From IMG/VR virus record IMGVR_UViG_3300024255_000005: a stretch of DNA of 64,000 nucleotides; one strand, given 5' to 3'. Under the pieces are notes generated by a model that saw only the letters and a program-made list of their open reading frames with translations, searched no databases and had not been told where the DNA came from. The DNA is from an uncultured virus (IMG/VR IMGVR_UViG_3300024255_000005). Its lineage: Duplodnaviria > Heunggongvirae > Uroviricota > Caudoviricetes. The position numbers and the translations under genes were made by a program. Position 1 is the stretch's first letter. Every line of letters begins with the position of its first letter. Positions 3,080 to 46,424 of the stretch are shown piece after piece.

Positions 3080-5284
3080 ATGGCACAAGTTAATAAAATT
3101 TCTTCATTTAAATCGTTTACAGAGATTAGAAAACAGGAATCTGTTAGTAAACTTAGAGAAGAAAACAATTTAAAAAGACAAGAATCAGTTGGTAAAATAG
3201 CTGCTATTCTAGATGAATTAGGATTAACTTCTTTCGAAGGATTAGAAGAAGATCAAAAGCAATCAATTATCTCAAAAATATTCGGAGATGTTTCTGAAGA
3301 AGAAATAGCTGAAATAGAAGTAGAGGTAGAAGAAGTTACTGCATCAGAAGAAGTTACTGAATCAGACGAACCAAAGTGTACTAATAAAAAAGGACATTTA
3401 TATAAGCAAATTGACAAGGACGGAACGGTAGAATGCGTACAATGTGGTCTAAGAAATTCATTAAGCGAATCTTTAGTTACTGAAGCTAAATCATTTTCAG
3501 AAGAAGAAATTAAAGCGACCACCGAAGTAGTTGCAGATGCAATAGCAAAGGTTTACAAAACTAAAGCAAAGGTTATAGACTTTGAAACTTTAGATAAGGA
3601 TGGTAAGATCGCAGGATTTTACATACATAAAGCAACAAATGATAGACACTCAAGATATTGGGTTACTGATTCTGGTGAAGTTGTTTCAGCATTTAGACAT
3701 GATACATTCGGAGACGGAGTTGTTGCACAGGTTGGAGATAAATTAGCTAGCGTGGTTAAAACGTTTAAAGCAAATGAATCTTTAGTTACTGAAAAGGCTA
3801 AATTTAAAGTAGGTGATACTACTGAAAATTCAATTGGAAGTGAAGTTGAAATAATCGCTATCGATAATTGGAGAAATATATCAAAACAATTTAAAAAAGA
3901 AATGGGATCAGATGCAGATTCATACGGATATGAAGATACTGCAAAGGGAGATTACTATCTTGCTAAAATTGTTAAAAGTGAAGAAGGTGATGAAGGTGAT
4001 TTAGGTATATTCCCAGTTGAATATGATCATGCAAATTACTGGGGATTAGGAGAATCATTAATGAATGAGGCCTTAGATATTAAATACAAAAGAGATGCAA
4101 AGAAAGTATTAACTCAATACAATAAAATATTTGCAGAACTAGGAAGCTTAACAGCTGATAAAATTTCTCACTTAGCAGCTATCAAATATATTTACGCTGA
4201 AGCATTAACTGATGCTAATTTCCATAGAGAAAGAACAGCTACTGAAAAAATTATCAAAGGAAGATTAGGAAGCGTTACTGTTAATCCTTTAACTCTTGGT
4301 AAACAAGCTATTATAGTAGGATCAAAGAAAATATCACAGATATTAGATGAGTATTATTCTAGAATTTCAAATGCAGCCGGATGGTCAGGTATTGGAGTTG
4401 CTGAAGGTACTGCTCTATATTTAGAATCTATTGGTGAATCTAAGCTTGCTGAAAAATTATTAGCAGGATTTAATGCAGTAGAAGAATCAGTTAAGTTTCA
4501 ATTAACTGAAGAAGAAATTTCTTTAAAAGAATCTAAATTTAACGAAGTAATTAATTATGTAATTAATGAAGGAACTAGAGGTCAATTTGGTAAAATAGAT
4601 AATAGAGGAAATATCACTTCAGTATATACTCATTATGATTCTTACCCAGAAAACATGTTACCTATTATTAAGAAATCTTTTAAAGGTGGTAAGAACGTAG
4701 ATACTGTTCTTTCTAAAGGTGCTAATTCAGGATTAGATAGTGATATAAGTAAAATTAACTTTTATGGTGATGGTTCTGTAGCAACTAATGGAAATATTAA
4801 AAAGATAGACCTTTATCTTAGTTCAGTAAGTGATGATGGTGCAGAATTCGTTTATTTATGGGATGAAAAGTCTAAAAAATGGATGATGGCAGATATCTAC
4901 GGAGAAACTGGATTAGTTCCAGCATTTGAATCAAATATTTATGAAGGTACTACTACATCTTTAGATGAATTTACAACTGACACCAAAAGTTACTCAGGTG
5001 CTTTAGCATATTCTTTTGAGAATCATAAAAAGAATTTTAAAGAAAATATTAAAGTAAGTACTGCTCTTGGAGATAAGTTTAAATTTACAAATGAAAAAGG
5101 AGGTATTGTAATGCAAAGGTCTCATGGTTCTGAATTTGACACAGTGTGGTTATCAGCTGATAAGAAAGAAGCTCAGAAAGTTGCAGATTGGCTTAAATCA
5201 GAAGGTGCTGAAATTGTTCTTTTTGGCCCAAAGACTAGATCATTTACTGGCAGCAAACAAGAATTTATCGATAGATATTTATAA
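3080..5284 (+). CDS. putative capsid-internal polyprotein (about 6 modules)
   Basis: N-terminal KISSFKSFTE targeting-like motif; modules separated by ESLVTE|A, ESLVTE|K, ESLMNE|A, VINE|G and ESNIYE|G. Confidence 0.7.
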   Translation: MAQVNKISSFKSFTEIRKQESVSKLREENNLKRQESVGKIAAILDELGLTSFEGLEEDQKQSIISKIFGDVSEEEIAEIEVEVEEVTASEEVTESDEPKCTNKKGHLYKQIDKDGTVECVQCGLRNSLSESLVTEAKSFSEEEIKATTEVVADAIAKVYKTKAKVIDFETLDKDGKIAGFYIHKATNDRHSRYWVTDSGEVVSAFRHDTFGDGVVAQVGDKLASVVKTFKANESLVTEKAKFKVGDTTENSIGSEVEIIAIDNWRNISKQFKKEMGSDADSYGYEDTAKGDYYLAKIVKSEEGDEGDLGIFPVEYDHANYWGLGESLMNEALDIKYKRDAKKVLTQYNKIFAELGSLTADKISHLAAIKYIYAEALTDANFHRERTATEKIIKGRLGSVTVNPLTLGKQAIIVGSKKISQILDEYYSRISNAAGWSGIGVAEGTALYLESIGESKLAEKLLAGFNAVEESVKFQLTEEEISLKESKFNEVINYVINEGTRGQFGKIDNRGNITSVYTHYDSYPENMLPIIKKSFKGGKNVDTVLSKGANSGLDSDISKINFYGDGSVATNGNIKKIDLYLSSVSDDGAEFVYLWDEKSKKWMMADIYGETGLVPAFESNIYEGTTTSLDEFTTDTKSYSGALAYSFENHKKNFKENIKVSTALGDKFKFTNEKGGIVMQRSHGSEFDTVWLSADKKEAQKVADWLKSEGAEIVLFGPKTRSFTGSKQEFIDRYL

Positions 5285-5301
5285 TAAAAAATAAAAATAA
5301 A

Positions 5302-5343
5302 CTGACCTGGATTTTTCCGGGTCAAGTTTTTTAATTATATTAG
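5302..5343 (+). terminator. hairpin terminator overlapping a TATATTAG promoter
   Basis: TGACCTGGA-TTTT-TCCGGGTCA stem, a T-run, then TATATTAG at 5336-5343. Confidence 0.65.
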
Positions 5344-5351
5344 CTATATAC

Positions 5352-6731
5352 ATGGAACTAAATAACAACTTCGTAGATTTTATTCAACATCACGCAGATG
5401 CACAAGGTATGACCAGAGAGGAATATGTTGCACATTATATGAGTGAAAATAAGAGTAAAGTTCTATCGTTTGACGAATATATCGTTGAAAAATACAATAC
5501 ACTTAAAGAAGAATTAATCTTAGAAGGCGGTGCAGCTGGTCACATGTCTCATCCTTTCGATGAAAAAGATTTAACATTTGCAGATTTTAAGAAGATTGTA
5601 ACATCTGGTCTCCAAGGAGAATTAAACTTCGAAGAAGAACCTACTGAAAAGACCGATGGACAAAATGTATTTGCAACAGTACAGGATGGAGAAGTAAAAT
5701 TTTCTAGAAATAAAGGTGGTTTAAAAGATCCTATGGATTTAAAATCATTTAAAGATAAATTTGAAGGACATGCTAGTAAATTAGTTCAAGATACTTTTCA
5801 ATTTGCTGCAGAAGATTTAGCAAATGCTTTAATAAAATTATCACCTAAAGATTTAGAAGTTTTTGATAATGGTAAAAACTGGATGAACATGGAATTAATT
5901 TATTCTAAGAATCCAAACGTTATCTATTATGATCGTGATGTTATTCAATTTCACGGTATTAAGAAAACTGACGGAGAAGGTAATTTTATCGGAGATGATA
6001 ATAAATCAGCCGCTGCAATAGTTAAAGCACTAGAAGGTGTTAAAGCTAATATAGGAAAGATATTCACTGTAATTCCCCCACAGATTGTTAAAATAGGTAA
6101 AGATCTTAATTTTGATAAAAATCAATCTAAATTTATAAAACAAATAGAAACATTGAGAGATCGTTATAATTTAACAGATGCTGATGAAGTTTCTAGATAT
6201 CATGAAATGTGGTGGAGAGAAACAATAGATACAAATTTCCCTGATTTACAACAAGACTATAAGGAAGGTTTATTATTAAGATGGGCCTATGGAGATAAGA
6301 AGTCTTTAGATATGAGATCACTTGCAAAGGAAATAGGAAAAGATGAAGCAGCTTCTGTTAAGAAATTTGACAAAGAAGATGTTAAAAAGAAATATAAAGA
6401 AAACATTAGACCGTTTGAAGATTTATTCTTAGAACTAGGATCTATAATTCTTAAAAATGCTTCTAATTTTGTAGCAGCAAATCCTGATAAGGAGATGCAA
6501 AGACTGCATAATCAGATTAGAACAGAAGCAGACAAGATCAAAAAAGGAGGTGAAGTTGACCAGGTTAATAGAGTAATGAAAGAACTTGATAGACTTGATA
6601 GAATTGGAGGAGTAGAATCTATTATACCAACCGAAGGAATAGTTTTTGTATATAAAGGAAAGACTATGAAATTAACAGGAACTTTTGCTGCCATCAATCA
6701 GTTGATGGGAATCATAAAGTACGGAAGATAA
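5352..6731 (+). CDS. ATP-dependent ligase-fold nucleotidyltransferase (RNA ligase-like), probably virion-packaged
   Basis: Motif I TEKTDG, motif III ELIY, motif IV EGIVF, motif V KLTG. KVLSFDEYIVE targeting-like motif and LILE|GGAAGHMSHPFD processing-like site. Confidence 0.65.
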   Translation: MELNNNFVDFIQHHADAQGMTREEYVAHYMSENKSKVLSFDEYIVEKYNTLKEELILEGGAAGHMSHPFDEKDLTFADFKKIVTSGLQGELNFEEEPTEKTDGQNVFATVQDGEVKFSRNKGGLKDPMDLKSFKDKFEGHASKLVQDTFQFAAEDLANALIKLSPKDLEVFDNGKNWMNMELIYSKNPNVIYYDRDVIQFHGIKKTDGEGNFIGDDNKSAAAIVKALEGVKANIGKIFTVIPPQIVKIGKDLNFDKNQSKFIKQIETLRDRYNLTDADEVSRYHEMWWRETIDTNFPDLQQDYKEGLLLRWAYGDKKSLDMRSLAKEIGKDEAASVKKFDKEDVKKKYKENIRPFEDLFLELGSIILKNASNFVAANPDKEMQRLHNQIRTEADKIKKGGEVDQVNRVMKELDRLDRIGGVESIIPTEGIVFVYKGKTMKLTGTFAAINQLMGIIKYGR

Positions 6732-6741
6732 ATAATATAAT

Positions 6742-8613
6742 ATGGCACTTAAAAAACTAAGACAAGTATTTCAGGAAACTAATATCAATGCATTTCAAGA
6801 TATGTTGAATAGCAGGGTTCTAGTAACTGAAAAAATACAAGGAGCTTCATTTCACGTTAGAAGAAACCAGACTAAATTCGAATACTATAAATCTGGAGAT
6901 TCTAGAATGAACATGATAGATAGAACGATAGTAGGTTTATATGAAACAGGTGTCAAGCACATTCAAAGTTTAGATCCTAGTATAAAAGAACAAATGCCAC
7001 ATGATTGGAAATTTGGTTTTGAATATTTACCTGAATTAAACGTGTCAGAATACAAATATACTAGACTACCCAAAAATAATTTAATACTTACTCACATTCA
7101 AACTATGAATGAGTCAGGTAAGATTAGAAAAACAATTAGCGATCCAGTTATATTAAATAAATGGGCAAAGATATTAGAGGTTCAAGGACCTAGCATTGTA
7201 TTTGACGGTATGTTATCTCAAATGCAAAAAGAAGAATTAATAACTGTTTTATCTATGTCAGATAAGGAGTTTTCTGAAGCATTTGATTATGATAAAAATA
7301 CAGATGCAAGATTACCTTTCACACAAAAGATGATTAAGACATTTAATCCAAATGCAGTTTCTCCTACGCTAAATGAAGACTTTGAAGTAGAAATTGACGG
7401 ATTAATAGTTTCTTTTATTGATGAGAAAAAATCTAGATCTTTTAAATTAGAAGATTTTACAAGAACTGTTAGCGAAAATAAGAGATCAAGTCACATGTAT
7501 CAAATTACTATTGCTGGTCTTATTGAATTTATTTCTACATTTGAAATGAAAGACATTCAACTAAATGAAGAAACAGCAGACTGGAGATATATTGAATTAA
7601 TGTCAGTGATGTTTAATACGTATGTTAAAGAACACTCTACTAAGTTTATTGGTGTTAACTTTGAATCAGCTGATTTTGCAGATTCAGATTCCTTTAAACT
7701 AAATACTAAATACATTAAGAACGAGACCACTCTTTCCTATGTTGAAAACGAAATACTTGCAGAATTATTTAAAATAACTTTAAGTTCTTTTAGAAAAAAG
7801 AGAAGCAAGGAAAGTGATATTATAAATGCAGAAATGTTAGAGCATTTAAATCAAATAGTAGAGGCTATAGACAAGAAAGTATTTGTAGAGAATACCGATG
7901 AAAATTCCATATATGACTTTAATAATTTCATATTACATAATAAAGTAAAGACAAGTGTTAATTTAAATGAAGCACTTAAAGTAGATCATCCTGAACAAGG
8001 AGGAGAATTAGTAAATATGTTTGTTGGTAGATTCCAACCATTTACACTTGGACATGCTAAAGTATTAGAAGCTATACACAAAGAAAATGGATATCCTGTG
8101 GTTGTTTTATTAGTAAAAGCAAAGAAAAAGAAAAAGGAAGATGCATTTAAAAGACCTTATGATGAGAAGACACAATCAGATATGTTTAAGGCGGTTCAAA
8201 AACAATATCCATTCTTAAAAGAAATCTTTGTAATTCCAACTGGAGGTATTGATACAATGTTCAATGCAATGAGACCAACTTATGAACCCGTATTATGGGG
8301 AACAGGAAGTGATAGAATGAAAACCTATGGATTCCAAGTAAATAAAGATTCTTATAGAGAAGATCTTGGAGTTAGAAGTGATTTTGGATTATTTGAAATT
8401 CCAAGAACAGATGATAATATTTCAGCTACTCAGGTTAGAAATGCAATGTTAGACGGAGATGAAAAACTATTTAAGTCTACAACGCCAAAAGCCTTACATA
8501 AAATGTATGGCGAACTTAAGAAAAAATTAGAAGATTCAGTAGGTACTTCAGAATCAAATGAAGTTACTGAATCATTATTAACATTTAAACAATTTTTAGA
8601 AAACAATGGATAG
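6742..8613 (+). CDS. ligase-fold domain fused to a HIGH-family nucleotidyltransferase (NMNAT/cytidylyltransferase-like)
   Basis: N-terminal VTEKIQGASF, FGFEY, DGLIV and FKL; C-terminal GRFQPFTLGH, GSDR and ISATQVR. Domains separated by VNLNE|A; C-terminal LLTFKQFLE. Confidence 0.75.
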   Translation: MALKKLRQVFQETNINAFQDMLNSRVLVTEKIQGASFHVRRNQTKFEYYKSGDSRMNMIDRTIVGLYETGVKHIQSLDPSIKEQMPHDWKFGFEYLPELNVSEYKYTRLPKNNLILTHIQTMNESGKIRKTISDPVILNKWAKILEVQGPSIVFDGMLSQMQKEELITVLSMSDKEFSEAFDYDKNTDARLPFTQKMIKTFNPNAVSPTLNEDFEVEIDGLIVSFIDEKKSRSFKLEDFTRTVSENKRSSHMYQITIAGLIEFISTFEMKDIQLNEETADWRYIELMSVMFNTYVKEHSTKFIGVNFESADFADSDSFKLNTKYIKNETTLSYVENEILAELFKITLSSFRKKRSKESDIINAEMLEHLNQIVEAIDKKVFVENTDENSIYDFNNFILHNKVKTSVNLNEALKVDHPEQGGELVNMFVGRFQPFTLGHAKVLEAIHKENGYPVVVLLVKAKKKKKEDAFKRPYDEKTQSDMFKAVQKQYPFLKEIFVIPTGGIDTMFNAMRPTYEPVLWGTGSDRMKTYGFQVNKDSYREDLGVRSDFGLFEIPRTDDNISATQVRNAMLDGDEKLFKSTTPKALHKMYGELKKKLEDSVGTSESNEVTESLLTFKQFLENNG

Positions 8614-9685
8614 GTACGATTTTGAAAGAGCACTTAATAGTGCTGCAAAAACCAATGCTGAAAATGAAGCATTAATTATAGAATCCTATATTGGAGTTGC
8701 ATCAACCGGCAGTAAGGCTGCCCAACAAAATTTATTTAATTCAATTAATAAAACATTCAAAGGGAATAAGTGTCCATGGCAAGGTGTTGAGTTTACTTCA
8801 ACATCAGATGTCAAACAACAGCCTGATGGTAGGTTATGGCTTTCTAAAATGGATGCCAATACATTCGGAGTAGTTTTTAAATATTTAATGTTAAATGCAA
8901 ACGAAGCAAACCAATTGCTTAATATTGGAAGAGACGATAATGGAATTGGTGCTGGAGAAATAATGCTAGCATATATTGTAGAAAATATAAAAATAGGTGG
9001 AGGTTCTGCTGATACTGACTTAGAATTATATAATGAAAAGTGGTCACCAATTAAACCACCCTCTGGTAAATGTGAGTTAAAAGAAGCTCAAATGTCAAAG
9101 GGCATGTTACAAAATTGGAGAACAGGTGCAAAACACCAGGGAATTAATAGTGATTATGTACCGGAGTTAACGGCATTATATGACGCAGTAAAATATAAGA
9201 TTAAAGAAATCAACCCGGACGGAGATGGTAAAGATATGGCTGCCTCTGGTGGTTGGGTAAATGAATGGGGAACTGTAGGTGGAAAAAGATTTAAGCATAT
9301 TCAGAATTTAACTAAGACAGATATTCAGGCCCTTTCTTCTAGTGAAAGAGATTTTAAAATAGGTCCTGGAGAAGAAGACAACGGTGCATTAGTAATTAAA
9401 TTTAATGACGTAGAATTAGGAAAGCTAAGTGACTCTAAAACTGCAGAAAAAATTAAAAGTATAATAGAGACTGAGTCTTCCGTTAGAACATTTACTGAAA
9501 TACAAAACGATGTAATTTCAGCAGTAGGAGATATATCTACTCCATTCCTTTTTATAGAATCTAAAGCACAAAAAATAGTAGCTTTTCATTATTATAAGAG
9601 ATTACCTGGTAAAACTAGCGAATTACAAATATATTCTATTACACAGGGTAAATTTAAATATAGAATAAAGCCTAACCGCGTTTAA
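8606..9685 (+). CDS. putative PD-(D/E)xK endonuclease
   Basis: GAGEIMLA...ADTDLEL...CELK arrangement typical of the restriction-endonuclease fold; N-terminal YDFERALN and LIIE|S. Confidence 0.5.
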   Translation: MDRYDFERALNSAAKTNAENEALIIESYIGVASTGSKAAQQNLFNSINKTFKGNKCPWQGVEFTSTSDVKQQPDGRLWLSKMDANTFGVVFKYLMLNANEANQLLNIGRDDNGIGAGEIMLAYIVENIKIGGGSADTDLELYNEKWSPIKPPSGKCELKEAQMSKGMLQNWRTGAKHQGINSDYVPELTALYDAVKYKIKEINPDGDGKDMAASGGWVNEWGTVGGKRFKHIQNLTKTDIQALSSSERDFKIGPGEEDNGALVIKFNDVELGKLSDSKTAEKIKSIIETESSVRTFTEIQNDVISAVGDISTPFLFIESKAQKIVAFHYYKRLPGKTSELQIYSITQGKFKYRIKPNRV

Positions 9686-9709
9686 ATAAATAAACAAATA
9701 CAAATAAAA

Positions 9710-12700
9710 ATGAGCACTAAAAAAACATTCGAAAGCTTTGTAAACTCAATGAACGAAAACGTTGATTTATATAAAGTATACAAAAAGGTTTCTGGGAAAT
9801 ATTCCTTGAGAAAGCCTTCTTATTGGGGAGATCTATTTAACCAAAGAGGTTCTATTCCATATAGAGAATTAACTAAATATGATAAAGAATTACATTCCTT
9901 AGACGTATACACTACTAAAGAATTAGGATGTCATAGCGAATATCCATTACAATCTAACTTTAAAGTTCAAGTGCCACAGGTATTTGTATTATATTGTAAC
10001 ACTGAATCAGGTGAGCTTGGAGAGTATTATGGAATGAGTATTCTTGTAAATACAGAAGGAGCAACATATCCAAGATATGCATGTGGCATGCCAGATTTCG
10101 AACCAGAATTACATAACTTTGCAAATGGAATTCCTGAAAGCTATTTAAACATTGTAACGACTGGTGCTCAATTGTTACATGAACAGATGATAGTTGAAGG
10201 TCAATTTTCATGGCTTACATCCGATACAAACACACAAATAGGTTCTGAAAGACAGAACATGATCACAGTATTCATGTATGATAATATGGGTAACAAGTGG
10301 ACTGAAAAGGATTATGAAGGTTACGGTAGCTTTGGAGGAATGGATTATTATGATCTTGTTGCTACAATGAATGGATATACTGAAGAAGATGTTAAAACAA
10401 TGAAAGGTTCATTTAAAGAATTAAGACAACTTGGTATTGATTTAGCATTCGGTAAAATAAAGACTAAAGATAAAAAGAAAAAGACATTATTTCCTGCATT
10501 AGTTGAAGATCCAAGATTTAATTGGAAAAGACACGACTTTACACAAGAAGCTGAATCTGATCCAAATCAATCATGGTATCAGGAAGAAGAGAGCGATGAC
10601 GATTATGATGACGATTACGAAAACGGATGGTATGAATCAAAGGTTACTGAAGCTCAAAAGCAGCTTACAATTAAAGATGTTGAAAAGGCATGGGATTCTG
10701 TGTATGGAGAAGATTTTGAATATGAATATGCTGGCGTCTATGGCGAAATCAAGAGAAAATATAAAGGTAAAATTACTAAAGCTGAATTACACGTCCTATG
10801 GTACAACAAGTATGGCGAAGATTTACAGGACGAACATAGTGGATTCTTAGATAAGTTAGAAGAAAATTTAAATGAAGCTACTGTAGTTATGGATGCAATG
10901 GATCCTAAATCAAAGATACTTAAAAAACTTTTAAAGAAACATAAAGTTACAATGAAAGTTTTAGATCCTAGTGGACCAAGTGGTTGGCCAGAAGTTGAGC
11001 TAACGGGTTCAAGAGAAGATTTACAATCAGTATTAGCCGATCCTAATGGATGGGACGATCCTGAATTAGGAGAATACATTGAAGAATCTAATATATTAGA
11101 AGCTAGATCTATTAACAAGATTTCAAAGGAATTTGGAGAAACAGTTAATAAGATGAAAGATATTGTAAAGATATACATCGCTGCAGAAGATGGAAGTGAT
11201 GAGAAAGCAACAACTAGACAACAGCTAATAGATCTAACAAAAAAGAAGAAAGCTCTTACAAATGAACTAGATGATGCAGTAGCTGGTAAAAATAAAGATG
11301 TAAAATTAGTTATCACTGAAGGTGTTATGTCAGACATTCACCAGATGATAGGTAATCACAAATCATTTGATACTTTTCAGAAAGAATTCTTTAAAGAATA
11401 CGGACATAAAAAAGTAATGAAAAAAACTCCTGAGTTTTTACAATGGCTAAAGGCTCTATATAATGATTTTGAATACATGGCAGGTGAAGCTATTGAAGAA
11501 AAGTATACTAAAAAATCGTTATTGAAAAAATTAGGTGATGCAGATGATGCAATGATTCAAACTGGAAACGGAAAAGAATACATTATTTATAATCCTGATT
11601 CTAATAACGATGACAATGCTGAAATGTGGCATGATAAATCAGTATTTGCAGTAGATCAGGACGGTGAAGAGCATGAAATAGCATATAAAGATATAGGGCT
11701 AGTAATGGTAGAATCAGTAGTTAATGAAGCCCTTTCAAAAGAGCAGAAAATGGTTGAAACTTTTTTAAATAAAATCGCAAAAGAATTTGATTACTCTATT
11801 CAGGATGCTGTTAGATTTGTAAAAGAAACTATTAGCAAAATGGGATTAGATGAATCAGTAGTTAACGAAGCTGTTTCAAGAGATACTAAGATATATCAAA
11901 TTGCAACACCAGCTCCACAGTCAATGCTTCTAGAAGAACTAGAAGAATTATTTGGCGATGATTATAGAAATATAGTTACAGAATTTAAAGAGGACGAAGG
12001 TTATGAATCAGTACTCATGTTTAATTTATCTAAATCAGATATTAAAAAAATTGAAGATAACATTGCCGATGTTTTAATTTGGGAATACTCAATTAAAAAA
12101 GGCAAAAAAATTACAGAATCAGTAGTTACTGAAGCTAAAAACGACGGTAACTTAGACACTATTGCCGATTACGTAAAACAAGTTTTAGATGATGGTAAAT
12201 CATTTATGGATATTGGTAAAAAACTTAAAGGTGCATATAAGTATGATTTTAGTACAGGTATGATGCCAATGTATATTATTCCAGTATCTGGAAATAAGAT
12301 CGTTATTATTAATAAGAAATATGTTGAAAACGGACAAGCAGATAGAGTCGTTGGAGATATTGCTATTGGCCTAATGGAATCAATGGTTACTGAAGCTAGG
12401 GGTTTTAAAAACGATGAAGATTTCGAAGAATTTTTAAAAGAAATCGATGCTATGCCAGAAAGAGAAGTTAGAAAGATAATGGGTAAAGAATATATCGATA
12501 CTCCTGGTTTTTATCAAGATGAAAAAGACAATTATGATGATGTAATTGACTTCATGATTTCAAACATGGGTGCAAATATTTATCACCAATTAGAACAGTG
12601 GTGGGAATTAAACGTAATGAAACCGGGTCTTAGAGAATCTAAAATTCAAATAAAAAGAAGATATACAGATAATCATCCTGCACAAACTTCAGGTAGAATT

Positions 12701-13372
12701 GCTAAAGTTAGAAACGCAATGATCGAAGCATTAGCCGACGGTGTATTAACAGAAGAAGAGTTTAATAATATTCTAAAAGAAAAATCAATCGACAATAAAA
12801 GATGGATGAGAAGAAATTCTAAATACTTTACAGTAAGTGAAAATGGAATCGGTCTTTCTAAATTTGGAAAAAGGATATTAACTGGAATTAAACCAGTAGT
12901 TAGCTTAACAATAGAATCTTTTATTTCAGAAAAGGCTGATATATCAGGAGCTTATAATGATTTAGAAGATTTATTAGGAACTGACATGGAAACCATGGAT
13001 GATTTTCAAAGAATTGAAAATGATGGTACATGGGAAGAAATGTCAGATTTTATAGAAATGGCAGGAGATGTTGAAGTTTTTAGAAGATATAAATTTAAAT
13101 CACAAAAAGATATCGATAAATTAGCTAAATATATTATGGGAGAATCTGTAGTTAATGAAGCTAATTATATTAAATTTAAAGGAAAGAAAGTAGATATTAG
13201 TTCATTAGAAATGGAAGATGTTGATATGAAAGATTATCCAGATTTTTCAGATGCATACTTTAGCTATGGTGAATATTCTAATGGAAAAGAAATGACTGAC
13301 GAAGAATTATCAGATTTTACAGATGATAATGGAGACTTAGCTAATGAATTAGCACATGATTCCTTACATTAA
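9710..13372 (+). CDS. putative capsid-internal polyprotein (about 14 modules)
   Basis: N-terminal KKTFESFVNSMNE; repeated ESVVNE|A, ESVVTE|A, ESMVTE|A, ESKVTE|A and similar linkers between unrelated modules of ~45-150 aa. Confidence 0.75.
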   Translation: MSTKKTFESFVNSMNENVDLYKVYKKVSGKYSLRKPSYWGDLFNQRGSIPYRELTKYDKELHSLDVYTTKELGCHSEYPLQSNFKVQVPQVFVLYCNTESGELGEYYGMSILVNTEGATYPRYACGMPDFEPELHNFANGIPESYLNIVTTGAQLLHEQMIVEGQFSWLTSDTNTQIGSERQNMITVFMYDNMGNKWTEKDYEGYGSFGGMDYYDLVATMNGYTEEDVKTMKGSFKELRQLGIDLAFGKIKTKDKKKKTLFPALVEDPRFNWKRHDFTQEAESDPNQSWYQEEESDDDYDDDYENGWYESKVTEAQKQLTIKDVEKAWDSVYGEDFEYEYAGVYGEIKRKYKGKITKAELHVLWYNKYGEDLQDEHSGFLDKLEENLNEATVVMDAMDPKSKILKKLLKKHKVTMKVLDPSGPSGWPEVELTGSREDLQSVLADPNGWDDPELGEYIEESNILEARSINKISKEFGETVNKMKDIVKIYIAAEDGSDEKATTRQQLIDLTKKKKALTNELDDAVAGKNKDVKLVITEGVMSDIHQMIGNHKSFDTFQKEFFKEYGHKKVMKKTPEFLQWLKALYNDFEYMAGEAIEEKYTKKSLLKKLGDADDAMIQTGNGKEYIIYNPDSNNDDNAEMWHDKSVFAVDQDGEEHEIAYKDIGLVMVESVVNEALSKEQKMVETFLNKIAKEFDYSIQDAVRFVKETISKMGLDESVVNEAVSRDTKIYQIATPAPQSMLLEELEELFGDDYRNIVTEFKEDEGYESVLMFNLSKSDIKKIEDNIADVLIWEYSIKKGKKITESVVTEAKNDGNLDTIADYVKQVLDDGKSFMDIGKKLKGAYKYDFSTGMMPMYIIPVSGNKIVIINKKYVENGQADRVVGDIAIGLMESMVTEARGFKNDEDFEEFLKEIDAMPEREVRKIMGKEYIDTPGFYQDEKDNYDDVIDFMISNMGANIYHQLEQWWELNVMKPGLRESKIQIKRRYTDNHPAQTSGRIAKVRNAMIEALADGVLTEEEFNNILKEKSIDNKRWMRRNSKYFTVSENGIGLSKFGKRILTGIKPVVSLTIESFISEKADISGAYNDLEDLLGTDMETMDDFQRIENDGTWEEMSDFIEMAGDVEVFRRYKFKSQKDIDKLAKYIMGESVVNEANYIKFKGKKVDISSLEMEDVDMKDYPDFSDAYFSYGEYSNGKEMTDEELSDFTDDNGDLANELAHDSLH

Positions 13373-13406
13373 AAGATATATACTATTATAAACAAAACAA
13401 TATAAA

Positions 13407-14738
13407 ATGAAACTATATACTAACTTCGATAATTTTATCAATGAAGCAATGGTTATGAAGCAGAAAGATACTGCTAAAATAGCACAAAAATTAGCTGCTG
13501 CCCTTTCGAAAGCAGACGGCAAAGAATTTTCAATTTCTAAAAATTCATTAGATGCCGGAGGCTTTGATCTAGATATGGATGGAGACGAATATGCAGGAGG
13601 AACTTATTTTATTGGCGATGCTGGTGAAATAGTAAACGCAGCAACAAGTAACGAGGTATATGGTCACATTGACGATAGTGAAGCTGAATTAGTTAAGAAA
13701 CTTAAAAAAGCTAAATTCTCAAAATATAGAGCAACAGAATCTTTAGAACTTAATGAGGCTCTAGCTTCTTCTAAGTTAAGAGGATTAATAGACATCAAAA
13801 GAGGTGGTAAGGAATTAATTAAAGGTATATATGGTCTTGCTAAAATAGCACTAGATAAAGTTACCGATGATATGATAATTTCTAATAGCAACCCAGTTGA
13901 AGTATATAAGAAAGCAAAAACATTCGGAAACGTAATTGTATTTTGGATTTCTAGAAATGAAAAAGAAAACGAATATGCTCCTTCTTCAAGATATGTTGAA
14001 ATGATTCCTGGAAATTGTTTATTAGCTGTTTCTAATGGAAGTAATGAAATGTTTCAGAACGATTCAATATGGACAAGAAACGATGACACAATAGGTGGTA
14101 AGAAAAGCACTAGAATACTTAGGAACATGGGTAAATACCCTGGATCTAAAGATACTGTTGGCGTTAACAAATCACACAACCAATATAGTGGAACGGGACT
14201 AGGTAACATTAAAAGAATTGCAGAAGTGTCTGACGAATGTTACATTATTAATTTAGACGCATTAAGAGATTCTTTATCTACTAATGACAAAACATCTGCA
14301 AGAGCAGAGGCAAAGTCTGGAGCTACTGCACTTACAAACCCTAAGAAAATCAAAGAGGATAACTTAACAAGGTATAATGATATTCTTGCTAAGAGAGCCG
14401 ATAACCCAGATAAAATAGACAAAAAGGTTAAAGAAATTATCGAAGATGCACATCAATTCTTAATGGCTGGTTTAGCGAAGAAAGAACTTGGAAATTATAA
14501 TGAATTAACAATAGGAAAAGATCCAAAGGGAAGAGAAATTAGACCAAGAGATTTAAATAACTATATTTCAAATATATTGTCAGATTATCAAGGATATGTA
14601 TCAGCATACGTTAATATGAAAACTGAAGAAGAACAATACGGAAAAGCCTCTTCATATTATATGAGAGATGCTAAACGTAAAGCCCTAGAGCTTAAGCAAA
14701 GAATCGCTAAATGGGATAACAAAAATATAGTTTGGTAA
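13407..14738 (+). CDS. putative capsid-internal protein (2 modules)
   Basis: MKLYTNFDNFINE|A start, internal ESLELNE|A, late promoter at 13375. Confidence 0.7.
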   Translation: MKLYTNFDNFINEAMVMKQKDTAKIAQKLAAALSKADGKEFSISKNSLDAGGFDLDMDGDEYAGGTYFIGDAGEIVNAATSNEVYGHIDDSEAELVKKLKKAKFSKYRATESLELNEALASSKLRGLIDIKRGGKELIKGIYGLAKIALDKVTDDMIISNSNPVEVYKKAKTFGNVIVFWISRNEKENEYAPSSRYVEMIPGNCLLAVSNGSNEMFQNDSIWTRNDDTIGGKKSTRILRNMGKYPGSKDTVGVNKSHNQYSGTGLGNIKRIAEVSDECYIINLDALRDSLSTNDKTSARAEAKSGATALTNPKKIKEDNLTRYNDILAKRADNPDKIDKKVKEIIEDAHQFLMAGLAKKELGNYNELTIGKDPKGREIRPRDLNNYISNILSDYQGYVSAYVNMKTEEEQYGKASSYYMRDAKRKALELKQRIAKWDNKNIVW

Positions 14739-14740
14739 TT

Positions 14741-15058
14741 ATGAAAAAAGTAAAATTATTTGAACAATACGTTAATGAATCAGCTATCGATTTATTAGCA
14801 GATGAAATAGAAGATGCAAAGGCATTCGATGCATTTTCAGATGGACAATCAGTTCAAGCAAGATCAACTAAAAAAACATGGGACGATGGTGTTCCAGTTT
14901 TAAAGTATATCGCTAGAGCTCCAAAGAAATCTGTTAAATTACCTAAGAAATTTAAAGTAGTAGATGATACTAAATACGGATGGTGGTATTTACAAGTATC
15001 AGGAGTATGGTATGGTATTGAACAAAGTGATTATGGAACACCACCGTTTGAATACTAA
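14741..15058 (+). CDS. putative capsid-internal small protein
   Basis: Likely start MKKVKLFEQYVNE|S at the ATG just after the upstream stop codon. Confidence 0.7.
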   Translation: MKKVKLFEQYVNESAIDLLADEIEDAKAFDAFSDGQSVQARSTKKTWDDGVPVLKYIARAPKKSVKLPKKFKVVDDTKYGWWYLQVSGVWYGIEQSDYGTPPFEY

Positions 15059-15061
15059 GAT

Positions 15062-16804
15062 ATGGAATTAAACGAAAATTTATCACTCGGCGATATGGCC
15101 GGAATGGGAGAAGTCTCTTTACCAACTGAAACATCAGTTGGATCAGGGGATATTCCAGCCGGAAAAGGAGATGCTGAAGAAGAGTATAAGAAAAAGAGGA
15201 ATAAAAAGAAACAACGTAAAATGAAAAATATTATATCATTTGAATCTTTTGGATCAGCCAATGAAGGTATGTCTAAGTCTGCTGTTAAAAAAGCTATTAA
15301 AGTTATTGATACGCAAATAGACACAGAGACCGGAGGAGATGGAGAACCTCTAGATAATGAAACTCTTCAAGCGCTAGAACAAGAAAGAGAAAGATTAGAA
15401 GGCCTTTTATCTGAATCAGTAATTAATGAAGGTAAGTTCGACGGTATTGCAGATTTAGTAAAATCTTTACATTTCGAAATGGATCCTAAAACTGCCGAAG
15501 AAAAGAAGATTGAAATAGGTTACAGACAAGGAGAAGTAACAAAGCGTAAACAAATCGAAGGTGGTAATTATTCACTAAGAAGATTCAGAAAAGAGATTAA
15601 ATACTGGGACGGTAATAAAAGAGATCAAGAATGGGCAGAAGGCATATTTGCCGGTCCAGACCATTATAATACTGTAAAGTCAACATTAGGAGCTGGTCCT
15701 CATAAGAAAGCTGTTAAGAAAGTAAGATGGACTCAAAAGAAATATGACCAATGGCTAGAAGATGTTGCATCAAACGACGGTTGGAAGAATGCTTATGATA
15801 TGGCGCAAAACGCTCAATTCGAACCAGGACTTATTGATTGGGTGGAGAAAAACTTTAGAGGTGAAGATGCAATGCAAAGAATCCAATGGGATATTGAAGC
15901 ATTTGCAGAATCAACAGCCACTAAACTGACTCATTTAAAATCTATTAATGAAAGTGCTGTTTTAGATAAAGAAACAGACGATGAAATATTTGATTCAGAA
16001 ACATACTATACAATAAGTAAGGTTTTAGCTATTTCTAGAAAATCTAAAGAATGTAAAGAAGCATACAAAAGAGGATCTAACTTCGGTAATGGTTTACAAA
16101 TGGCAGAGCGTTTAAAAAAGGAATTTCCAAAAATTCAATTTAGATGTAGAGTTTATAGATCAGAATGGAATTATGGAGGTAATTTGTGTTTAGCTATTGA
16201 TCTTCGAGGAAAATCATGGAAACATGAAGTATTTAAGTTTTCGTCTAACAACTCAACCCGTAGACCTAATTATTCATTTGCAAAATTATTTAATGGAACC
16301 AAAAAAGTATCTACTAATGAAGTAGAAGACGAATGGGGTATGGGAATTGTTCATGGATCATATCAATCTATTTCTAGCTTTGATAAATTTATGGATGATG
16401 TAGTTGGAGTTTTCAAAGATTACAAAAGAGTAAACGGAGTAGAATTTGACATGAAAACTATCCTAGCAGATTTTAAAGCTAATGATAAAATATTAGCTGA
16501 ATGGACTAGATTAAAGCCGAGAATAGAAAAACAATATGACATCGCAAAAGAAAGCGGAAGAAAAGCACATAGGAGAATAGAATTAAGAATGCCTTATATT
16601 AGAACGGCTGAAAAAAGGGTTTATTACAAGACTGACGAGCCAAGGGAATTAAGACATCCTGATGAATATGGAGAAAGCGCTTATAATATTATAGATGGAA
16701 AAGATTATGCTAAATACGAAGCTGCTCAAGCCAAGGTTTCAGATATGATTGAAAATTTTTGTAAGAAACATAAATTTGAATTTGTATGGGCTGCTAGCTG
16801 GTAA
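15062..16804 (+). CDS. putative capsid-internal polyprotein (about 3 modules)
   Basis: Internal MKNIISFESFGSANE|G, ESVINE|G and KSINE|S; N-terminal GMGEVSLP...GSGD segment. Confidence 0.7.
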   Translation: MELNENLSLGDMAGMGEVSLPTETSVGSGDIPAGKGDAEEEYKKKRNKKKQRKMKNIISFESFGSANEGMSKSAVKKAIKVIDTQIDTETGGDGEPLDNETLQALEQERERLEGLLSESVINEGKFDGIADLVKSLHFEMDPKTAEEKKIEIGYRQGEVTKRKQIEGGNYSLRRFRKEIKYWDGNKRDQEWAEGIFAGPDHYNTVKSTLGAGPHKKAVKKVRWTQKKYDQWLEDVASNDGWKNAYDMAQNAQFEPGLIDWVEKNFRGEDAMQRIQWDIEAFAESTATKLTHLKSINESAVLDKETDDEIFDSETYYTISKVLAISRKSKECKEAYKRGSNFGNGLQMAERLKKEFPKIQFRCRVYRSEWNYGGNLCLAIDLRGKSWKHEVFKFSSNNSTRRPNYSFAKLFNGTKKVSTNEVEDEWGMGIVHGSYQSISSFDKFMDDVVGVFKDYKRVNGVEFDMKTILADFKANDKILAEWTRLKPRIEKQYDIAKESGRKAHRRIELRMPYIRTAEKRVYYKTDEPRELRHPDEYGESAYNIIDGKDYAKYEAAQAKVSDMIENFCKKHKFEFVWAASW

Positions 16805-17294: not shown

Positions 17295-17540
17295 ATGGAT
17301 AACATTATCTTCAGACCCGAAAACTTTAACACATGGTCAATTCAAGCGATAGAGAAAATCGAAACTGTGATTGATTCATGTTCTAGTCTTTCTCATCTAG
17401 ATGGAGCTAGAAAATTAGTTGATAACTTTACTATCATCACTGCACTTGAAGAAGATGATGAAAAATCTATTGAAATAATTATTCACCAGCTGTGGCTCAG
17501 AATCAAGTTACAAGAAAATAAAATAAATGGATCAAAATAA
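17295..17540 (+). CDS. hypothetical protein
   Basis: 81 aa ORF behind an AAAC-N16-GTATAAT promoter. Confidence 0.65.
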   Translation: MDNIIFRPENFNTWSIQAIEKIETVIDSCSSLSHLDGARKLVDNFTIITALEEDDEKSIEIIIHQLWLRIKLQENKINGSK

Positions 17541-19159: not shown

Positions 19160-19187
19160 AAAATTGCACTTTTTTTGAAAAAAAGCA

Positions 19188-19227: not shown

Positions 19228-19254
19228 TATAGTAATTAATAAACAAAGCAATAA

Positions 19255-29472: not shown

Positions 29473-29644
29473 CCTTAACGAAGAACAACAGGCATTTGTT
29501 GTAAAATACAAAACAATGTATAATAAGCTTGTTTTACTTCAAGAAAAAATGGATTCTATAAAAAAAGAATCCGATGTTCTTATTGAAGAACTTGAAACAC
29601 TAAGAAAACAAGAAAAAAAAATATTTAAAAATGGCAAAAAATAA
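29456..29644 (+). CDS. hypothetical coiled-coil protein
   Basis: 62 aa ORF overlapping both neighbours. Confidence 0.6.
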   Translation: MLDPNNLNEEQQAFVVKYKTMYNKLVLLQEKMDSIKKESDVLIEELETLRKQEKKIFKNGKK

Positions 29645-30740
29645 AGACTTTACATTCGACGATTTAAACAAGGAATTAGCAACTCTTAATCCTCTAGGTT
29701 CCATTATGGAAACTTCTAACTTTTCAGAAGTAACTGATTGGATTCATACCGGTAATTATCATTTGAATGCATGTGTATCTGGCTCCCTATTTAAAGGATG
29801 GCCTAATAACAGATCATCCTCAATAGCCGGTCCTTCAGGAACTGGTAAAACATTTCTAATGTTAAATACAGTTAGAGAAGCGATCCTGAAAGGATATAAG
29901 GTAATTTATTATGATTCAGAAGCAGCTGTTGATAAAGAGCAAATGGAAAAGTTCGGAATTGATACTTCACAGGTTAATTATCAGCCAACTAATACAGTTC
30001 AGGATTTTAGAACATCCATAACTACAATTACTCAAAAAATGCAAGAGGCAAAAGCTGCAGGCGCAACTGTTCCTAAGGTTATGATCATATTAGATTCAGC
30101 CGGTAACTTAGCAACTGCGAAGGAAATAGCAGATGCTGCAAGCGGTTCAGATAAGTCAGATATGACTCGATCAAAGGTTCTTAAGTCAATATTTAGAATT
30201 ATCATGACTCCCTTAGCAGACCTTAAAATACCCTTCTTATTTACTAATCATACATACCAGTCTCAATCTTTTATTCCAATGCAAATTGCAGGTGGAGGAA
30301 CAGGACCTCAGTATGCCGCTTCAATAGTTCTTATGCTAGGAAAGGCTCAATTAAAGGAAGGTGTAGATAAAGTAGGAATTATAGTAACAGCTAAGCCAGA
30401 TAAAAATCGTTTTGCTAAACCAACTCCTATTAAGTTTCATTTAAACTTTACCGAAGGTATGAACCCCTATGTTGGATTAGAACAATACGCAACATGGGAT
30501 ATTTGTGGTATAACTAGAGGAACTATTGAAAAGGGAGTTAAGACTCCAAAGGCAACTGCGAGAACATGGATCTGCAAGCATTTAGATAAACCAGTTCCAA
30601 ATAAAGAATTCTTCACCGAGAAAGTATTCACGCAAACAGTCTTAGAACAAATAGAATCGCATATTCAACCAATATTTAACTATAATTCAGAAATAGCTTC
30701 AATTGATGTTGAAGAAATGTTAGAAGATAGTGAAGCATAA
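29631..30740 (+). CDS. uvsX: UvsX RecA-like recombinase
   Basis: GPSGTGKT, YYDSE, LDSAGNL, TNHTY, GGGTG and KNRF. Confidence 0.93.
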   Translation: MAKNKDFTFDDLNKELATLNPLGSIMETSNFSEVTDWIHTGNYHLNACVSGSLFKGWPNNRSSSIAGPSGTGKTFLMLNTVREAILKGYKVIYYDSEAAVDKEQMEKFGIDTSQVNYQPTNTVQDFRTSITTITQKMQEAKAAGATVPKVMIILDSAGNLATAKEIADAASGSDKSDMTRSKVLKSIFRIIMTPLADLKIPFLFTNHTYQSQSFIPMQIAGGGTGPQYAASIVLMLGKAQLKEGVDKVGIIVTAKPDKNRFAKPTPIKFHLNFTEGMNPYVGLEQYATWDICGITRGTIEKGVKTPKATARTWICKHLDKPVPNKEFFTEKVFTQTVLEQIESHIQPIFNYNSEIASIDVEEMLEDSEA

Positions 30741-44981: not shown

Positions 44982-46424
44982 ATGGCAAATTTAATTAACT
45001 CTGCAGAAGTTAGAGAAACTTGGGCTCCGATCATCGAATCAGCTACAGGTATCAACGAAGCAGAAAAACTAGCGTGGATGTCAGAATACTGTCATAACCA
45101 CAAATTATACGAAGATGCACACATCATGTCTTTAGGGACTGCTGGTAACATCTACGGTATGGGTAATGTATCTTTACCAAATATGGAAACAGGTGCTGAC
45201 GGTTCAGGAGATAAAGCTCCAACGTTATTACCATTAGCAATGCAAGTTGCTGCACAAACTATCGGTTTAGACTTAGTACCAGTTGTACCAATGGCTGGAC
45301 CAATGGGTCTTTTATCTTACTTAGACTTCGTTTACGAAGGTGGTAAATTAATCGGATCAACTGCTCCAACTTATGTAAAAGTATCAGGTACTAGCTTAGT
45401 TGTTGGTGCTACTGCTGATGCAGATGCTTTACCTTTTGCAGTTGCTCAAGGTGCTTCTAGATTAGACGGTATGGAAATTTACAAAATCACTGCTGCCGGT
45501 GAAGCGAAAGCTGATGCTGGTTCTGTTGCAGATTGTTTCTCAGCTGCTGATGATTCTGAAGGTGTATCTACTTTAAAGATCGAATTAGTGAAAGCTTTAG
45601 AAGATCATATTAAAGGATTCGCTGCTGCTGACAAGGATGGTAATGCATTCTCAAGAGGTGTTGGTGAACAAACTCCTGACAAAGTTATGGGTCTTTCTTT
45701 ATTCTCAAAAAGTGTTGCTGCTGAAACTTTCCAAGTTGCTGCTGCAGTTACTAGAGAACAAGTACAAGATCTTAAACAATTCGGTGTAGATGCTGTTGCT
45801 CAAGTTGAGTCAGTATTAACTAACGAATTAACTCAGTCAATCAACAACTTAATCTTAGCTAAACTTAATTCTTTAGGTAAAGATAACATTACAGCTTCAG
45901 GTGCTAACTTAGACTTAGACTTAAGTGATGCTGTATTAGGTGGTGAGACTATCGCTTCTAACCATAGAAGAATCTTAACTTCAATCCTTGCTGCTGCGAA
46001 CTTTATCGCAAACAGAGGTAGAAGAGGTGCAGGTAACTTCTGTGTTGTAGGTCCTAAAGTGGCTACAGCTTTACAATCAGTTGCTGGTTTCGTTGCTAAC
46101 CCAATGGCTAACACATTATCACAAGCAGCAGGTGCAATCTACCCAGTAGGTTCTGTAGCTGGTGTAAATGTATACACTGACCCAAGACAAGCATGGGAAG
46201 GTGCTGCTGACAATACTTATGAAGTAGTAGTTGGTAGAAAAGGTGATGGTAACGGTCCTGGATTAGTATTCATGCCTTACTTAATGGCTGAATCAGTACA
46301 AACAATCGCTGAAGGAACTATGGCTCCTAAAGTTGCTGTTAAATCTAGATTCGCATTAGTTGAAGCAGGTTTCCACCCAGAAACTCAATATGTTACATAC
46401 AATGTATCTAACTTAGCTCTTTAA
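44982..46424 (+). CDS. gp23: major capsid protein
   Basis: WAPII, DLVPVVPMAGPMG, EQVQDLK, RRGAGNF, VYTDP, FMPY and KSRFAL. Confidence 0.95.
   Translation: MANLINSAEVRETWAPIIESATGINEAEKLAWMSEYCHNHKLYEDAHIMSLGTAGNIYGMGNVSLPNMETGADGSGDKAPTLLPLAMQVAAQTIGLDLVPVVPMAGPMGLLSYLDFVYEGGKLIGSTAPTYVKVSGTSLVVGATADADALPFAVAQGASRLDGMEIYKITAAGEAKADAGSVADCFSAADDSEGVSTLKIELVKALEDHIKGFAAADKDGNAFSRGVGEQTPDKVMGLSLFSKSVAAETFQVAAAVTREQVQDLKQFGVDAVAQVESVLTNELTQSINNLILAKLNSLGKDNITASGANLDLDLSDAVLGGETIASNHRRILTSILAAANFIANRGRRGAGNFCVVGPKVATALQSVAGFVANPMANTLSQAAGAIYPVGSVAGVNVYTDPRQAWEGAADNTYEVVVGRKGDGNGPGLVFMPYLMAESVQTIAEGTMAPKVAVKSRFALVEAGFHPETQYVTYNVSNLAL

Follow-up and report, generated by a model that had tools for sequence, protein, structure and literature searches.

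An in-frame DNA word between dissimilar modules of marine T4-like phage genes coincides with points of module gain, loss and replacement and is a putative head-protease site

How phages quickly renew the set of proteins that they carry in their heads is an open question, and it is touched by a stretch of DNA of 64,000 nucleotides (nt) from an uncultured virus of the Caudoviricetes (IMG/VR record IMGVR_UViG_3300024255_000005), which is referred to below as the window. Within it, three or four neighbouring genes (one of them in a variant form) are divided into modules by a short and nearly identical DNA word, the “linker”, which is read in frame and encodes a candidate protease site. The first-pass annotation of this sequence had proposed that recombination between such repeats would add, delete or swap whole modules while keeping both the reading frame and the cleavage site. 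The locus raises the question of whether the word acts as a joint for the exchange of modules, or whether its likeness at the DNA level is a by-product of a constrained peptide. We consider it probable that the linker is both an in-frame recombination joint and a protease site, in genes that encode strings of putative head-packaged modules.

The near-identical copies that had been reported at seven positions are all present, each on the + strand. The word, GAATC[A/T][G/T]TAGTTA[A/C][T/C]GAAGC, encodes E-S-V-V-[T/N]-E followed by A. A degenerate pattern for it (GAATCWKTARTTAMYGAA) has 7 matches in the window and 0 in 100 shuffles, and the 20-mer consensus, with at most 3 mismatches allowed, matches 8 times against an expectation of 0.03. 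These 8 matches are confined to the open reading frames (ORFs) 3080-5284, 9710-13372 and 15062-16804, on the + strand and in frame, and the rest of the 64 kb has no match. The peptide E-S-[LVM]-[VMI]-[TN]-E-[AG] occurs 8 times in the linker ORFs and, in all six frames elsewhere, once in a loose form. Copies additional to the seven are found at 4052, 10634, 12377 and 12914, with degenerate copies at 10859, 11084, 13737, 4562 and 4928. Conservation is confined to 18 nt and the next GC, both flanks being unrelated between copies, and a blastp comparison among 10 window ORFs (E<=1e-3) gave no match within or between ORFs, so that the modules, which are 45-210 amino acids (aa) long, are mutually dissimilar. 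Because the flanks are unrelated and the modules have no detectable similarity, the proposed layout of repeat, unique module, repeat, always in frame, holds, and the candidate explanation by module paralogy in a tandem-repeat protein was rejected, since the repeat units are not homologous at the same threshold.

The same arrangement extends beyond the window. The exact 20-nt word is present in at least 135 IMG/VR stretches; the linker frame is open in 164 of the 165 instances listed and the alternative frames in 0 of 330, and 71 left and 63 right flank clusters are joined in 102 combinations. A logo of 442 sites reads E-S-V-[V/I]-[T/N]-E-A-K. In canonical words such as that at 11711-11730 there are stops in both other frames (TAG in +1; TAA/TGA or TGA in +2), so that an out-of-register join or a frameshift at the linker would terminate immediately, although the AT-rich DNA background may reduce the significance of these stops. 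Every linker starts with GAATC, and a methylation or restriction reading of this GANTC site was also considered; it was rejected, as GANTC is not avoided in the window (265 occurrences against 221 expected).

That the gain and loss of modules break at the repeat, as the proposal implies, was borne out by alignment in two gene families and at the DNA level. Gene B (9710..13372, + strand; 1220 aa, ten modules), identified as a long ORF with linkers, has 372 homologues of 670-1310 aa, and gene A (3080..5284, + strand; 734 aa, about 7 modules) has 446 homologues of variable architecture. The homologue sets used were the best 120 of 372 and the best 120 of 446, respectively. For gene B, pairwise global alignment was applied to 80 non-redundant proteins forming 733 related pairs; the gene A family, with 78 non-redundant proteins and 829 pairs, served as an independent replicate. 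These yielded 143 and 135 distinct clean insertions or deletions (indels) of at least 25 aa, respectively, which were compared with a null model in which each indel was put at a random position in the same protein (300 trials). With a broad linker pattern, 75 of the 143 gene B indels have a linker at both ends (null mean 2.2, maximum 7), as do 106 of the 135 gene A indels (null mean 3.2, maximum 9), and the numbers with a linker at one or both ends rise to 115 and 129. The strict pattern is found at both ends of 36 gene B indels (null mean 0.5, maximum 3) and 59 gene A indels (null mean 1.1, maximum 5). The clean-indel test replaced a test based on the ends of ungapped high-scoring segment pairs (HSPs), in which strict linkers were enriched approximately 5-fold (346 of 3690 against 67, and 324 of 3446 against 63), because the latter is noisy and most HSP ends reflect divergence. 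A table of identity per module shows the same behaviour in individual relatives, which are 95-100% identical in most modules and have single modules missing or replaced.

The breakpoints can be followed at nucleotide resolution in gene B. Compared with one related locus, L001, the identity is 97-98% over 9710-11864, 12116-12925 and 13141-13372, and all four internal ends of these blocks lie inside linkers. The first block stops at 11864, within the word at 11852..11871 (GAATCAGTAGTTAACGAAGC; ESVVNE|A, where the bar follows the second Glu), which is also the site of a 70-aa insertion in the homologues P0002, P0003 and P0006, and homology restarts exactly at 12116, at the linker 12116..12135 (GAATCAGTAGTTACTGAAGC; ESVVTE|A). 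A 76-aa deletion in L001 has the junction GAATCTTTTATT|AACGAAGCT, and the linker ESFINE that results is a chimera, with ESFI(SE) on its left and (ESVV)NE on its right, followed by A. One parent of this hybrid is the linker at 12914..12931 (GAATCTTTTATTTCAGAA; ESFISE|K), where HSP ends fall at 12924 and 12925; the linker at 13142..13161 (GAATCTGTAGTTAATGAAGC; ESVVNE|A) has an HSP start at 13141 and receives a 92-aa module in P0028. Elsewhere in the same alignment, the module at 10654-10858 is only 83.9% identical to L001, against 98.7% and 98.6% for its neighbours, and the differences cluster between the edges of two linkers, at 10654 and 10861. The patch begins directly after the linker at 10634..10653 (GAATCAAAGGTTACTGAAGC; ESKVTE|A, found by the consensus scan) and ends at the degenerate linker at 10859..10876 (EENLNE|A), which are the left and right edges of a 75-aa indel.

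A blastn comparison of four ORFs with 37 related loci gave 54 distinct HSP ends, 16 of which are within 3 nt of a strict linker, a zone that makes up 2.9% of the sequence; many of the remaining ends are at degenerate linkers (10633, 10873, 12634-12635, 13741-13760, 4563-4568 and 4932-4942). In gene B, HSP ends occur at 11715-11730 in the linker 11711..11730 (GAATCAGTAGTTAATGAAGC; ESVVNE|A). The linker at 12377..12396 (GAATCAATGGTTACTGAAGC; ESMVTE|A), which is absent from the first-pass annotation, is the left edge of an 86-aa indel, and the right edge of an indel of 81-86 aa in at least 10 relatives is at 12635, where HSPs start at 12634 and 12635 and a module begins with GAATCT (E-S, 12635..12640), a recurrent breakpoint at which 5-6 letters are shared.

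In gene A, linkers stand at aa 130, 233 and 325, with degenerate forms at aa 495 and 617. The first, at 3467..3486 (GAATCTTTAGTTACTGAAGC; ESLVTE|A, a pattern match), marks the left boundary of a 103-aa module missing from P0156. This unique module (3487..3775, family 18) is flanked by two identical 18-mers, is present in some relatives and absent from others, and occurs also inside the gene B homologues P0037 and P0043. Homology to relatives in blastn begins at 3774/3776, at the second pattern match (3776..3793, GAATCTTTAGTTACTGAA; ESLVTE|K). The third linker (4052..4071, GAATCATTAATGAATGAGGC; ESLMNE|A), which the first-pass annotation did not list, has an HSP end at 4067 and is the right edge of many indels. 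Downstream of gene B, a 443-aa ORF (13407..14738) with a targeting-like N-terminus (MKLYTNFDNFINE|A) contains modules in a variant form, with the variant linker ESLELNE|A at 13737-13760 and HSP ends at 13741-13760, and a 580-aa ORF (15062..16804) has a single linker (15413..15432, GAATCAGTAATTAATGAAGG; ESVINE|G) with HSP starts at 15406-15437. All of these features are on the + strand.

Joints within assembled contigs provide a further view of the exchanges. Alignment to gene B of contigs from four marine runs, each of a different study, gave nine joints, of which five run from linker to linker: 11082 to 11710, 11710 to 12377, 12376 to 12635, 12923 to 13152, and backward from 11710 to 10634. 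The first of these involves the degenerate linker at 11084..11101 (ESNILE|A), at which loose contig ends also lie (11086, 11088 and 11099). The five joints share 2-6 letters at the join, and the backward joint can also be explained by the genomic order in P0003. One further joint is a replacement (12139 to 13141). Of the loose contig ends listed, 16 of 22 are at linkers. In run X6 the loose ends at 12116 and 13164 carry on into gene A sequence, and contigs of the same run join the gene A module 3487-3775 to the linker at 13142.

The consequence of these exchanges can be seen in the composition of the gene families. When 240 proteins were cut at linkers and the resulting 1270 pieces were clustered, 172 module families were obtained, arranged in 158 architectures. 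Among the recurrent families, 44 of 54 have at least 2 different left neighbours; 27 of 865 family pairs are found in both orders; and 8 families are common to both gene types, an example being the module at residues 390-464 of gene B, which is found in P0149. The first and last modules are conserved within each gene type and the interior is variable. Relatives with a fixed content and order of modules, which would have spoken against the proposal, are thus not what these families contain. A separate observation concerns the related locus L022, in which the counterpart of the window module 11852-12141 (at 16505-16794) follows the gene B homologue downstream at a distance of about 4 kb, apparently in another gene.

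The separation of a genuine role of the DNA from the effect of the peptide requires that the likeness of the linkers be compared with what the encoded amino acids and the codon bias of the genome would produce. Codon backgrounds were drawn from the window and the fetched relative loci, and for the nine linker peptides of the window synonymous codons were resampled in 20000 simulations. The fraction of identical codons is 0.777, against a null value of 0.545 with a background of all genes, which is reached in 0 of 20000 simulations, and against 0.573 with a background from the four linker ORFs (P=0.0005). For nucleotide identity the observed value is 0.835 and the null value 0.71 (0 of 20000 simulations). 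The caveat in the first-pass annotation that AT-rich codon bias explains part of the identity was therefore sound, since the null value is already 0.71, and synonymous-site identity nevertheless exceeds the expectation from codon usage.

The excess resides in particular codons. In a set of 67 linkers with distinct flanks from the window and 37 related loci, the Val at codon 3 is encoded by GTA 40 times, GTG 4 times and GTT 0 times, the Val at codon 4 by GTT 52 times and GTA once, and Thr by ACT 31 times, ACC twice and ACA 0 times, against background frequencies of 0.51 for GTT, 0.42 for GTA and 0.35 for ACA. The dipeptide VV is encoded by GTAGTT in 33 of 36 linkers, against 20 of 64 occurrences outside linkers. 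Neighbouring-base bias was rejected as the cause of the fixed Val codons, as the base before or after leaves Val codon usage unchanged. As a guard against shared descent, 143 instances were merged into 20 clusters whenever either flank was at least 40% identical, and the preferences persist across these clusters: GTA in 13 of 13 for codon 3 (p=1e-5), GTT in 16 of 17 for codon 4 (p=2e-4), ACT in 11 of 12 for Thr (p=0.007) and GCT in 9 of 11 for Ala (p=0.01). The DNA likeness of the linkers thus exceeds, in part, what peptide and codon bias produce.

These results are consistent with the following mechanism. A polyprotein string would be loaded into the prohead, where a gp21-type protease would cut after the second Glu of each linker, freeing each module as a separate internal head protein. 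An exchange between two words, within one genome or between co-infecting relatives, would delete, insert, replace or move a whole module, and each exchange would keep one linker, the reading frame and the cut site intact; since two copies of the word, both in one frame, enclose every module, an exchange gives an in-frame product with one linker. The exchange itself may proceed by short-homology recombination through machinery of the UvsX/UvsY/UvsW/gp46-47 type or by template switching, and selection would then retain the in-frame products. Genes of this type are predicted in the window from PHROG matches, namely a UvsX-like recombinase (29631..30740, + strand), a UvsY-like ORF (1083-1520), UvsW (1538-3046, with a Pfam UvsW_N match in addition) and gp46/47-like ORFs (33417-36202), and by these matches they are the phage's own recombination machinery. 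The part of the original proposal that holds that modules are swapped at the repeats is upheld by the breakpoints, the hybrid linker and the movement of modules; that DNA homology causes the exchanges, like the cutting of the linkers and the packaging of the products, is something that we infer.

The reading of the linker as joint and protease site must be set against a body of results that weigh on the other side. Not all changes respect the linkers: 28 of the 143 gene B indels and 6 of the 135 gene A indels have no recognised linker at either end, and 3 of the 9 contig joints are off linkers, although the shorter sides of these three are 21-26 nt, an unreliable length. The recurrent breakpoints at 12635, 11084 and 10859 use degenerate linkers or only GAATC[A/T], and 5-6 shared letters are very short for homologous recombination. 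Some junction linkers are irregular (ESFVVNE, ESNTVTE and ESVVTVNE), being out-of-register or later-modified joins. The codons for Ser (TCA 16, TCT 4) and Asn (AAT 4, AAC 4) vary among the 20 clusters; the word is therefore not uniformly homogenised, and if it were simply homogenised over its full length such variation would not be expected. Indel counts do not represent independent events, because the homologues are phylogenetically related, and the cutting of proteins into modules presupposes linker boundaries, although the indel and nucleotide breakpoint tests are independent of that presupposition. In addition, a tblastn search with gene B against 50,697 phage records gave zero matches, so that no cultured relative was found there, and two of ten window copies (3776 and 12914) have Lys after the Glu, the other 8 having A or G. 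The variable Ser and Asn codons, the irregular junctions and shared tracts of so few letters speak for a large contribution of selection as well.

The strongest alternative takes this last point to its conclusion. It holds that illegitimate recombination occurs at random places, that only whole-module changes with one working linker survive, and that the linkers resemble each other at the DNA level as a side effect of codon bias, common ancestry and constraint on the peptide. The freedom of the Ser and Asn codons, the irregular junction linkers, the breakpoints that share just 2-6 letters, and the large share of the nucleotide identity given by peptide and codon bias are all as this explanation would have them. 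It does not account for the near-fixed codons of Val, Thr and Ala, with adjacent Val positions fixed differently, in 20 independent contexts, which neither codon usage nor neighbouring bases explain. It also sits poorly with junctions that lie inside the word, in register, and yield chimeric linkers, and with a module-sized divergent patch that ends within 1-3 nt of two words. The fixed codons, the chimeric linkers formed in register and the patch bounded by linkers point to a contribution of the DNA, and we regard selection alone as a possible explanation that is nonetheless unlikely. At the other extreme, the nucleotide sequence of the 20-nt word might be conserved because it works as a recombination site within coding DNA, these genes forming an integron-like platform for in-frame cassettes, possibly with circular intermediates; this bolder proposal seems to us doubtful. 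If it were true, a module dropped between two words would be expressed immediately, the leader would carry it into the capsid, the protease would release it and the phage would deliver it to the next host, and marine T4-like phages would be trading a large pool of small effectors.

The identification of the linker as a head-protease site is a distinct part of the preferred reading and has its own evidence. The T4 gp21 protease, according to PMC9026906, cuts after Glu in L/I-X-E, first observed at a Glu-Ala bond, and the linker ends, [V/I/M]-[T/N]-E followed by A or G, fit this aliphatic-X-Glu rule as a match of sequence. The window encodes a predicted prohead protease of the T4 gp21 family (42802..44826, + strand; Peptidase_S77 PF03420 with 39.1 bits against a cut-off of 27, phrog_207 at 5.7e-42, and also Peptidase_S80 with 29.9 bits against a cut-off of 23.4). 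The major capsid protein, of the Gp23 family (44982..46424, + strand; Pfam Gp23 at 3e-43), has the linker-like GINE|A at residue 26. Beside these matches it may be observed that the protease ORF consists of a protease domain (about residues 10-200) and an acidic helical tail of about 470 residues, ends at its C-terminus in TVNE|A, and looks like a protease-scaffold fusion. Further, several unrelated ORFs share a leader, M-K-x-x-x-[FY]-x-x-[FY]-[LIV]-[NT]-E (13407-13448, 14741-14782, 36239-36283, 42386-42433, 46546-46605 and 61296-61337), which ends in a linker-type site and looks like a capsid-targeting leader; because such leaders stand on unrelated ORFs, proteins beyond the polyproteins may also be head cargo. 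Gene B has the N-terminus ...TFESFVNSMNE|N. It is the fit to the gp21 rule, together with the like sites in the capsid protein and the protease and with the leaders, that leads us to read these genes as strings of head cargo.

It might instead be supposed that the linker is a joint and not a head-protease site, serving as a flexible spacer, a scaffold-docking peptide or the site of another protease, in which case a cargo role would be unnecessary. The polyprotein genes do sit among replication genes, not head genes, and the N-termini of gene A and of the ORF at 15062 are less clear as targeting leaders, which in T4-type head proteins have about 10 residues and are removed by the protease. The T4-type late-promoter word TATAAATA, which was tried as evidence for the time of expression, was rejected in that role, being present 12 times in the window where 13.9 are expected and nowhere upstream of the polyprotein genes. 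T4 internal-protein genes are, however, also distant from head genes, and this supposition leaves unexplained that the last three residues and the following Ala match the published gp21 rule, that a protease of this family is encoded in the window, that like sites occur at the N-terminus of the capsid protein and the C-terminus of the protease, and that the ORFs 13407, 14741, 46546 and 42386 start with leaders ending in [LIV]-[NT]-E. We consider it rather improbable. No match to the IPI, IPII, IPIII or Alt families was found by Pfam or PHROG among the window ORFs scanned.

A dedicated site-specific system, similar to an integron or a shufflon, in which the 20-nt word is the recognised site and cassettes are moved, perhaps in circular form, is very unlikely. 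Its attraction is that nucleotide conservation exceeds that of the peptide and that cassettes shift between positions and genes, and there is a precedent with mini-circles in the promoter-early stem-loop (PeSL) cassettes (PMC2839356). Against it, scans of 46 window ORFs with PHROGs and of 15 with Pfam gave no family of integrases, invertases or transposases, the word lies always within coding frames, in the window as in nearly all of the IMG/VR instances listed, the position of the junction within the word varies, and the general recombination genes of the phage suffice. That the pattern is an artefact, from assembly chimeras at a short repeat or from an ordinary tandem-repeat protein, is scarcely credible: the relatives come from metagenome contigs alone, but the 20-nt word falls below the 31-letter word length stated for Logan, the same junctions recur across contigs of several studies and in two databases, and the modules are dissimilar to one another.

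The preferred reading, a linker that is at once a recombination joint and a probable protease site, has partial parallels in known systems. RNA virus polyproteins are likewise encoded by one ORF and cut by their own protease at a repeated short site; their essential proteins are invariant in content and order, and their cut sites are not known to act as recombination joints. Cargo proteins of T4-type phages are described as highly variable and unrelated among related phages in PMC9026906 and PMC3012670. In the same sources, the T4 internal proteins (IPI, IPII, IPIII and Alt) resemble the system in the window in having a protease of the gp21 family, an aliphatic-X-Glu site that is usually before Ala (the cut being only predicted here) and variable cargo. 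They also have short leaders with a site of this kind at the end, to which the leader-like N-termini of some window ORFs are candidate counterparts. In T4, however, the cargo is in separate genes, each with its own leader and usually one cut, while the window has up to ten modules per ORF with internal sites; moreover, the putative polyproteins of the window have no sequence similarity to the T4 internal proteins. In giant phages (phiKZ, 201phi2-1 and SPN3US) head proteins are also cut after Glu by a gp21-related protease, sometimes at several sites, but the motif is S/A/G-X-E, the extra cuts are mostly in propeptides, and the accessible parts of PMC9026906 and PMC5694885 describe no cassette array or DNA word.

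Two other systems resemble the word as a joint. The PeSL cassettes of T4-type phages (Arbiol et al. 2010, PMC2839356) also have a short DNA motif flanking variable genes of unknown function, and insertions, deletions and replacements that distinguish close relatives end at the motif and leave a chimeric motif behind. The PeSL is about 100 bp long, intergenic, and composed of a sigma-70-like promoter and a stem-loop terminator, whereas the word in the window is 18-20 nt long, a fifth of that length, lies in frame and encodes a peptide with a probable function of its own. The glycine-rich motifs of gp38, the tail-fibre adhesin of T-even phages, are likewise short coding motifs that part variable segments, and exchanges within or near them create chimeras (Tetart et al. 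1996, 1998, as cited in PMC3157838). According to PMC3157838, these motifs make up the core of a single folded domain, in a fixed order, while the motifs of the window part unrelated and probably independent modules that vary in number and order, and are a probable cut site. In a literature search that covered titles and the openings of abstracts, with subscription journals outside its coverage, no head-cargo polyprotein with cut-site linkers as recombination joints was found.

If the preferred reading is true, one short element does three jobs, preserving the frame, specifying where to cut and providing the crossover point, and this would explain the 158 module arrangements among 240 sampled proteins of abundant marine phages. 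The phage-head proteins that are injected with the DNA include anti-defence factors in T4, and the 172 module families would be a pool of uncharacterised small proteins that are candidates for host takeover or counter-defence. The arrangement also suggests a natural design by which several foreign proteins could be loaded into a T4-type head from one gene. Pfam found nothing above its cut-off in 35 proteins representing 80 module families (DUF6329 reached 19 bits against a cut-off of 26.8), and no usable match to the 103-aa module came from a protein atlas. An AlphaFold2 model of gene B residues 661-1220, built with 39 sequences, has a mean pLDDT of 43.7 and a pTM of 0.21, which is too poor to judge folding; the first three linkers lie in pLDDT dips below 50, to which the low confidence of the model gives little weight.

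The wider content of the window identifies it as a piece of the genome of an uncultured marine T4-like myovirus. The G+C content is 31-35% across the 64 kb, and the + strand carries nearly all genes. The T4-type replication and recombination set comprises a primase, the UvsY-like protein, the UvsW helicase, ribonucleotide reductase, the UvsX-like protein, a DnaB-like helicase, the gp46/47-like nuclease and a clamp loader, and the virion set comprises a portal protein (PF07230), the gp21-family prohead protease, the Gp23-family capsid protein, the large terminase, sheath and tube. The closest capsid protein in the phage collection, at 52% identity, is from an uncultured 462-kb phage, and near-identical DNA occurs in contigs from at least 19 marine or seawater runs of 14 studies. 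A scan of the whole window for tRNAs found none.

Some neighbouring genes deserve mention. Between genes A and B, at 5352-8613, lie two linker-free ORFs, for which sequence searches of the PDB gave no significant match. The first (5352-6731) contains a K-T-D-G stretch that by eye is like that of nucleotidyl-transferases (ligases) and is without a Pfam, PHROG or PDB match; the second (6742-8613) has a cytidylyltransferase-like domain at its end (PF01467, 1.1e-7). The DNA polymerase is split into two ORFs (22749-24155 and 28085-29284) about 4 kb apart, with the ribonucleotide reductase genes between them. In the last part of the window (60.9-64 kb), where an Rfam scan gave no match and a tandem-repeat scan one short repeat only, an open frame of at least 821 aa (61538-64000) continues past the window end; it has no early ATG, is Gly/Ala-rich and contains about 6 repeats of a hydrophobic unit (...PP..W[TS]LK.G.A..VF...). 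Because of these repeats and its place downstream of the tube gene, its product may be a tape-measure or membrane-active tail protein. Finally, the set of genes at 17527-22245 and 31048-31641, made up of sugar-nucleotide genes (one like those for heptose-phosphate adenylyltransferase, and an epimerase gene) and of genes resembling those for an alpha-glucosyltransferase and a 2OG-Fe(II) oxygenase, suggests DNA base modification.

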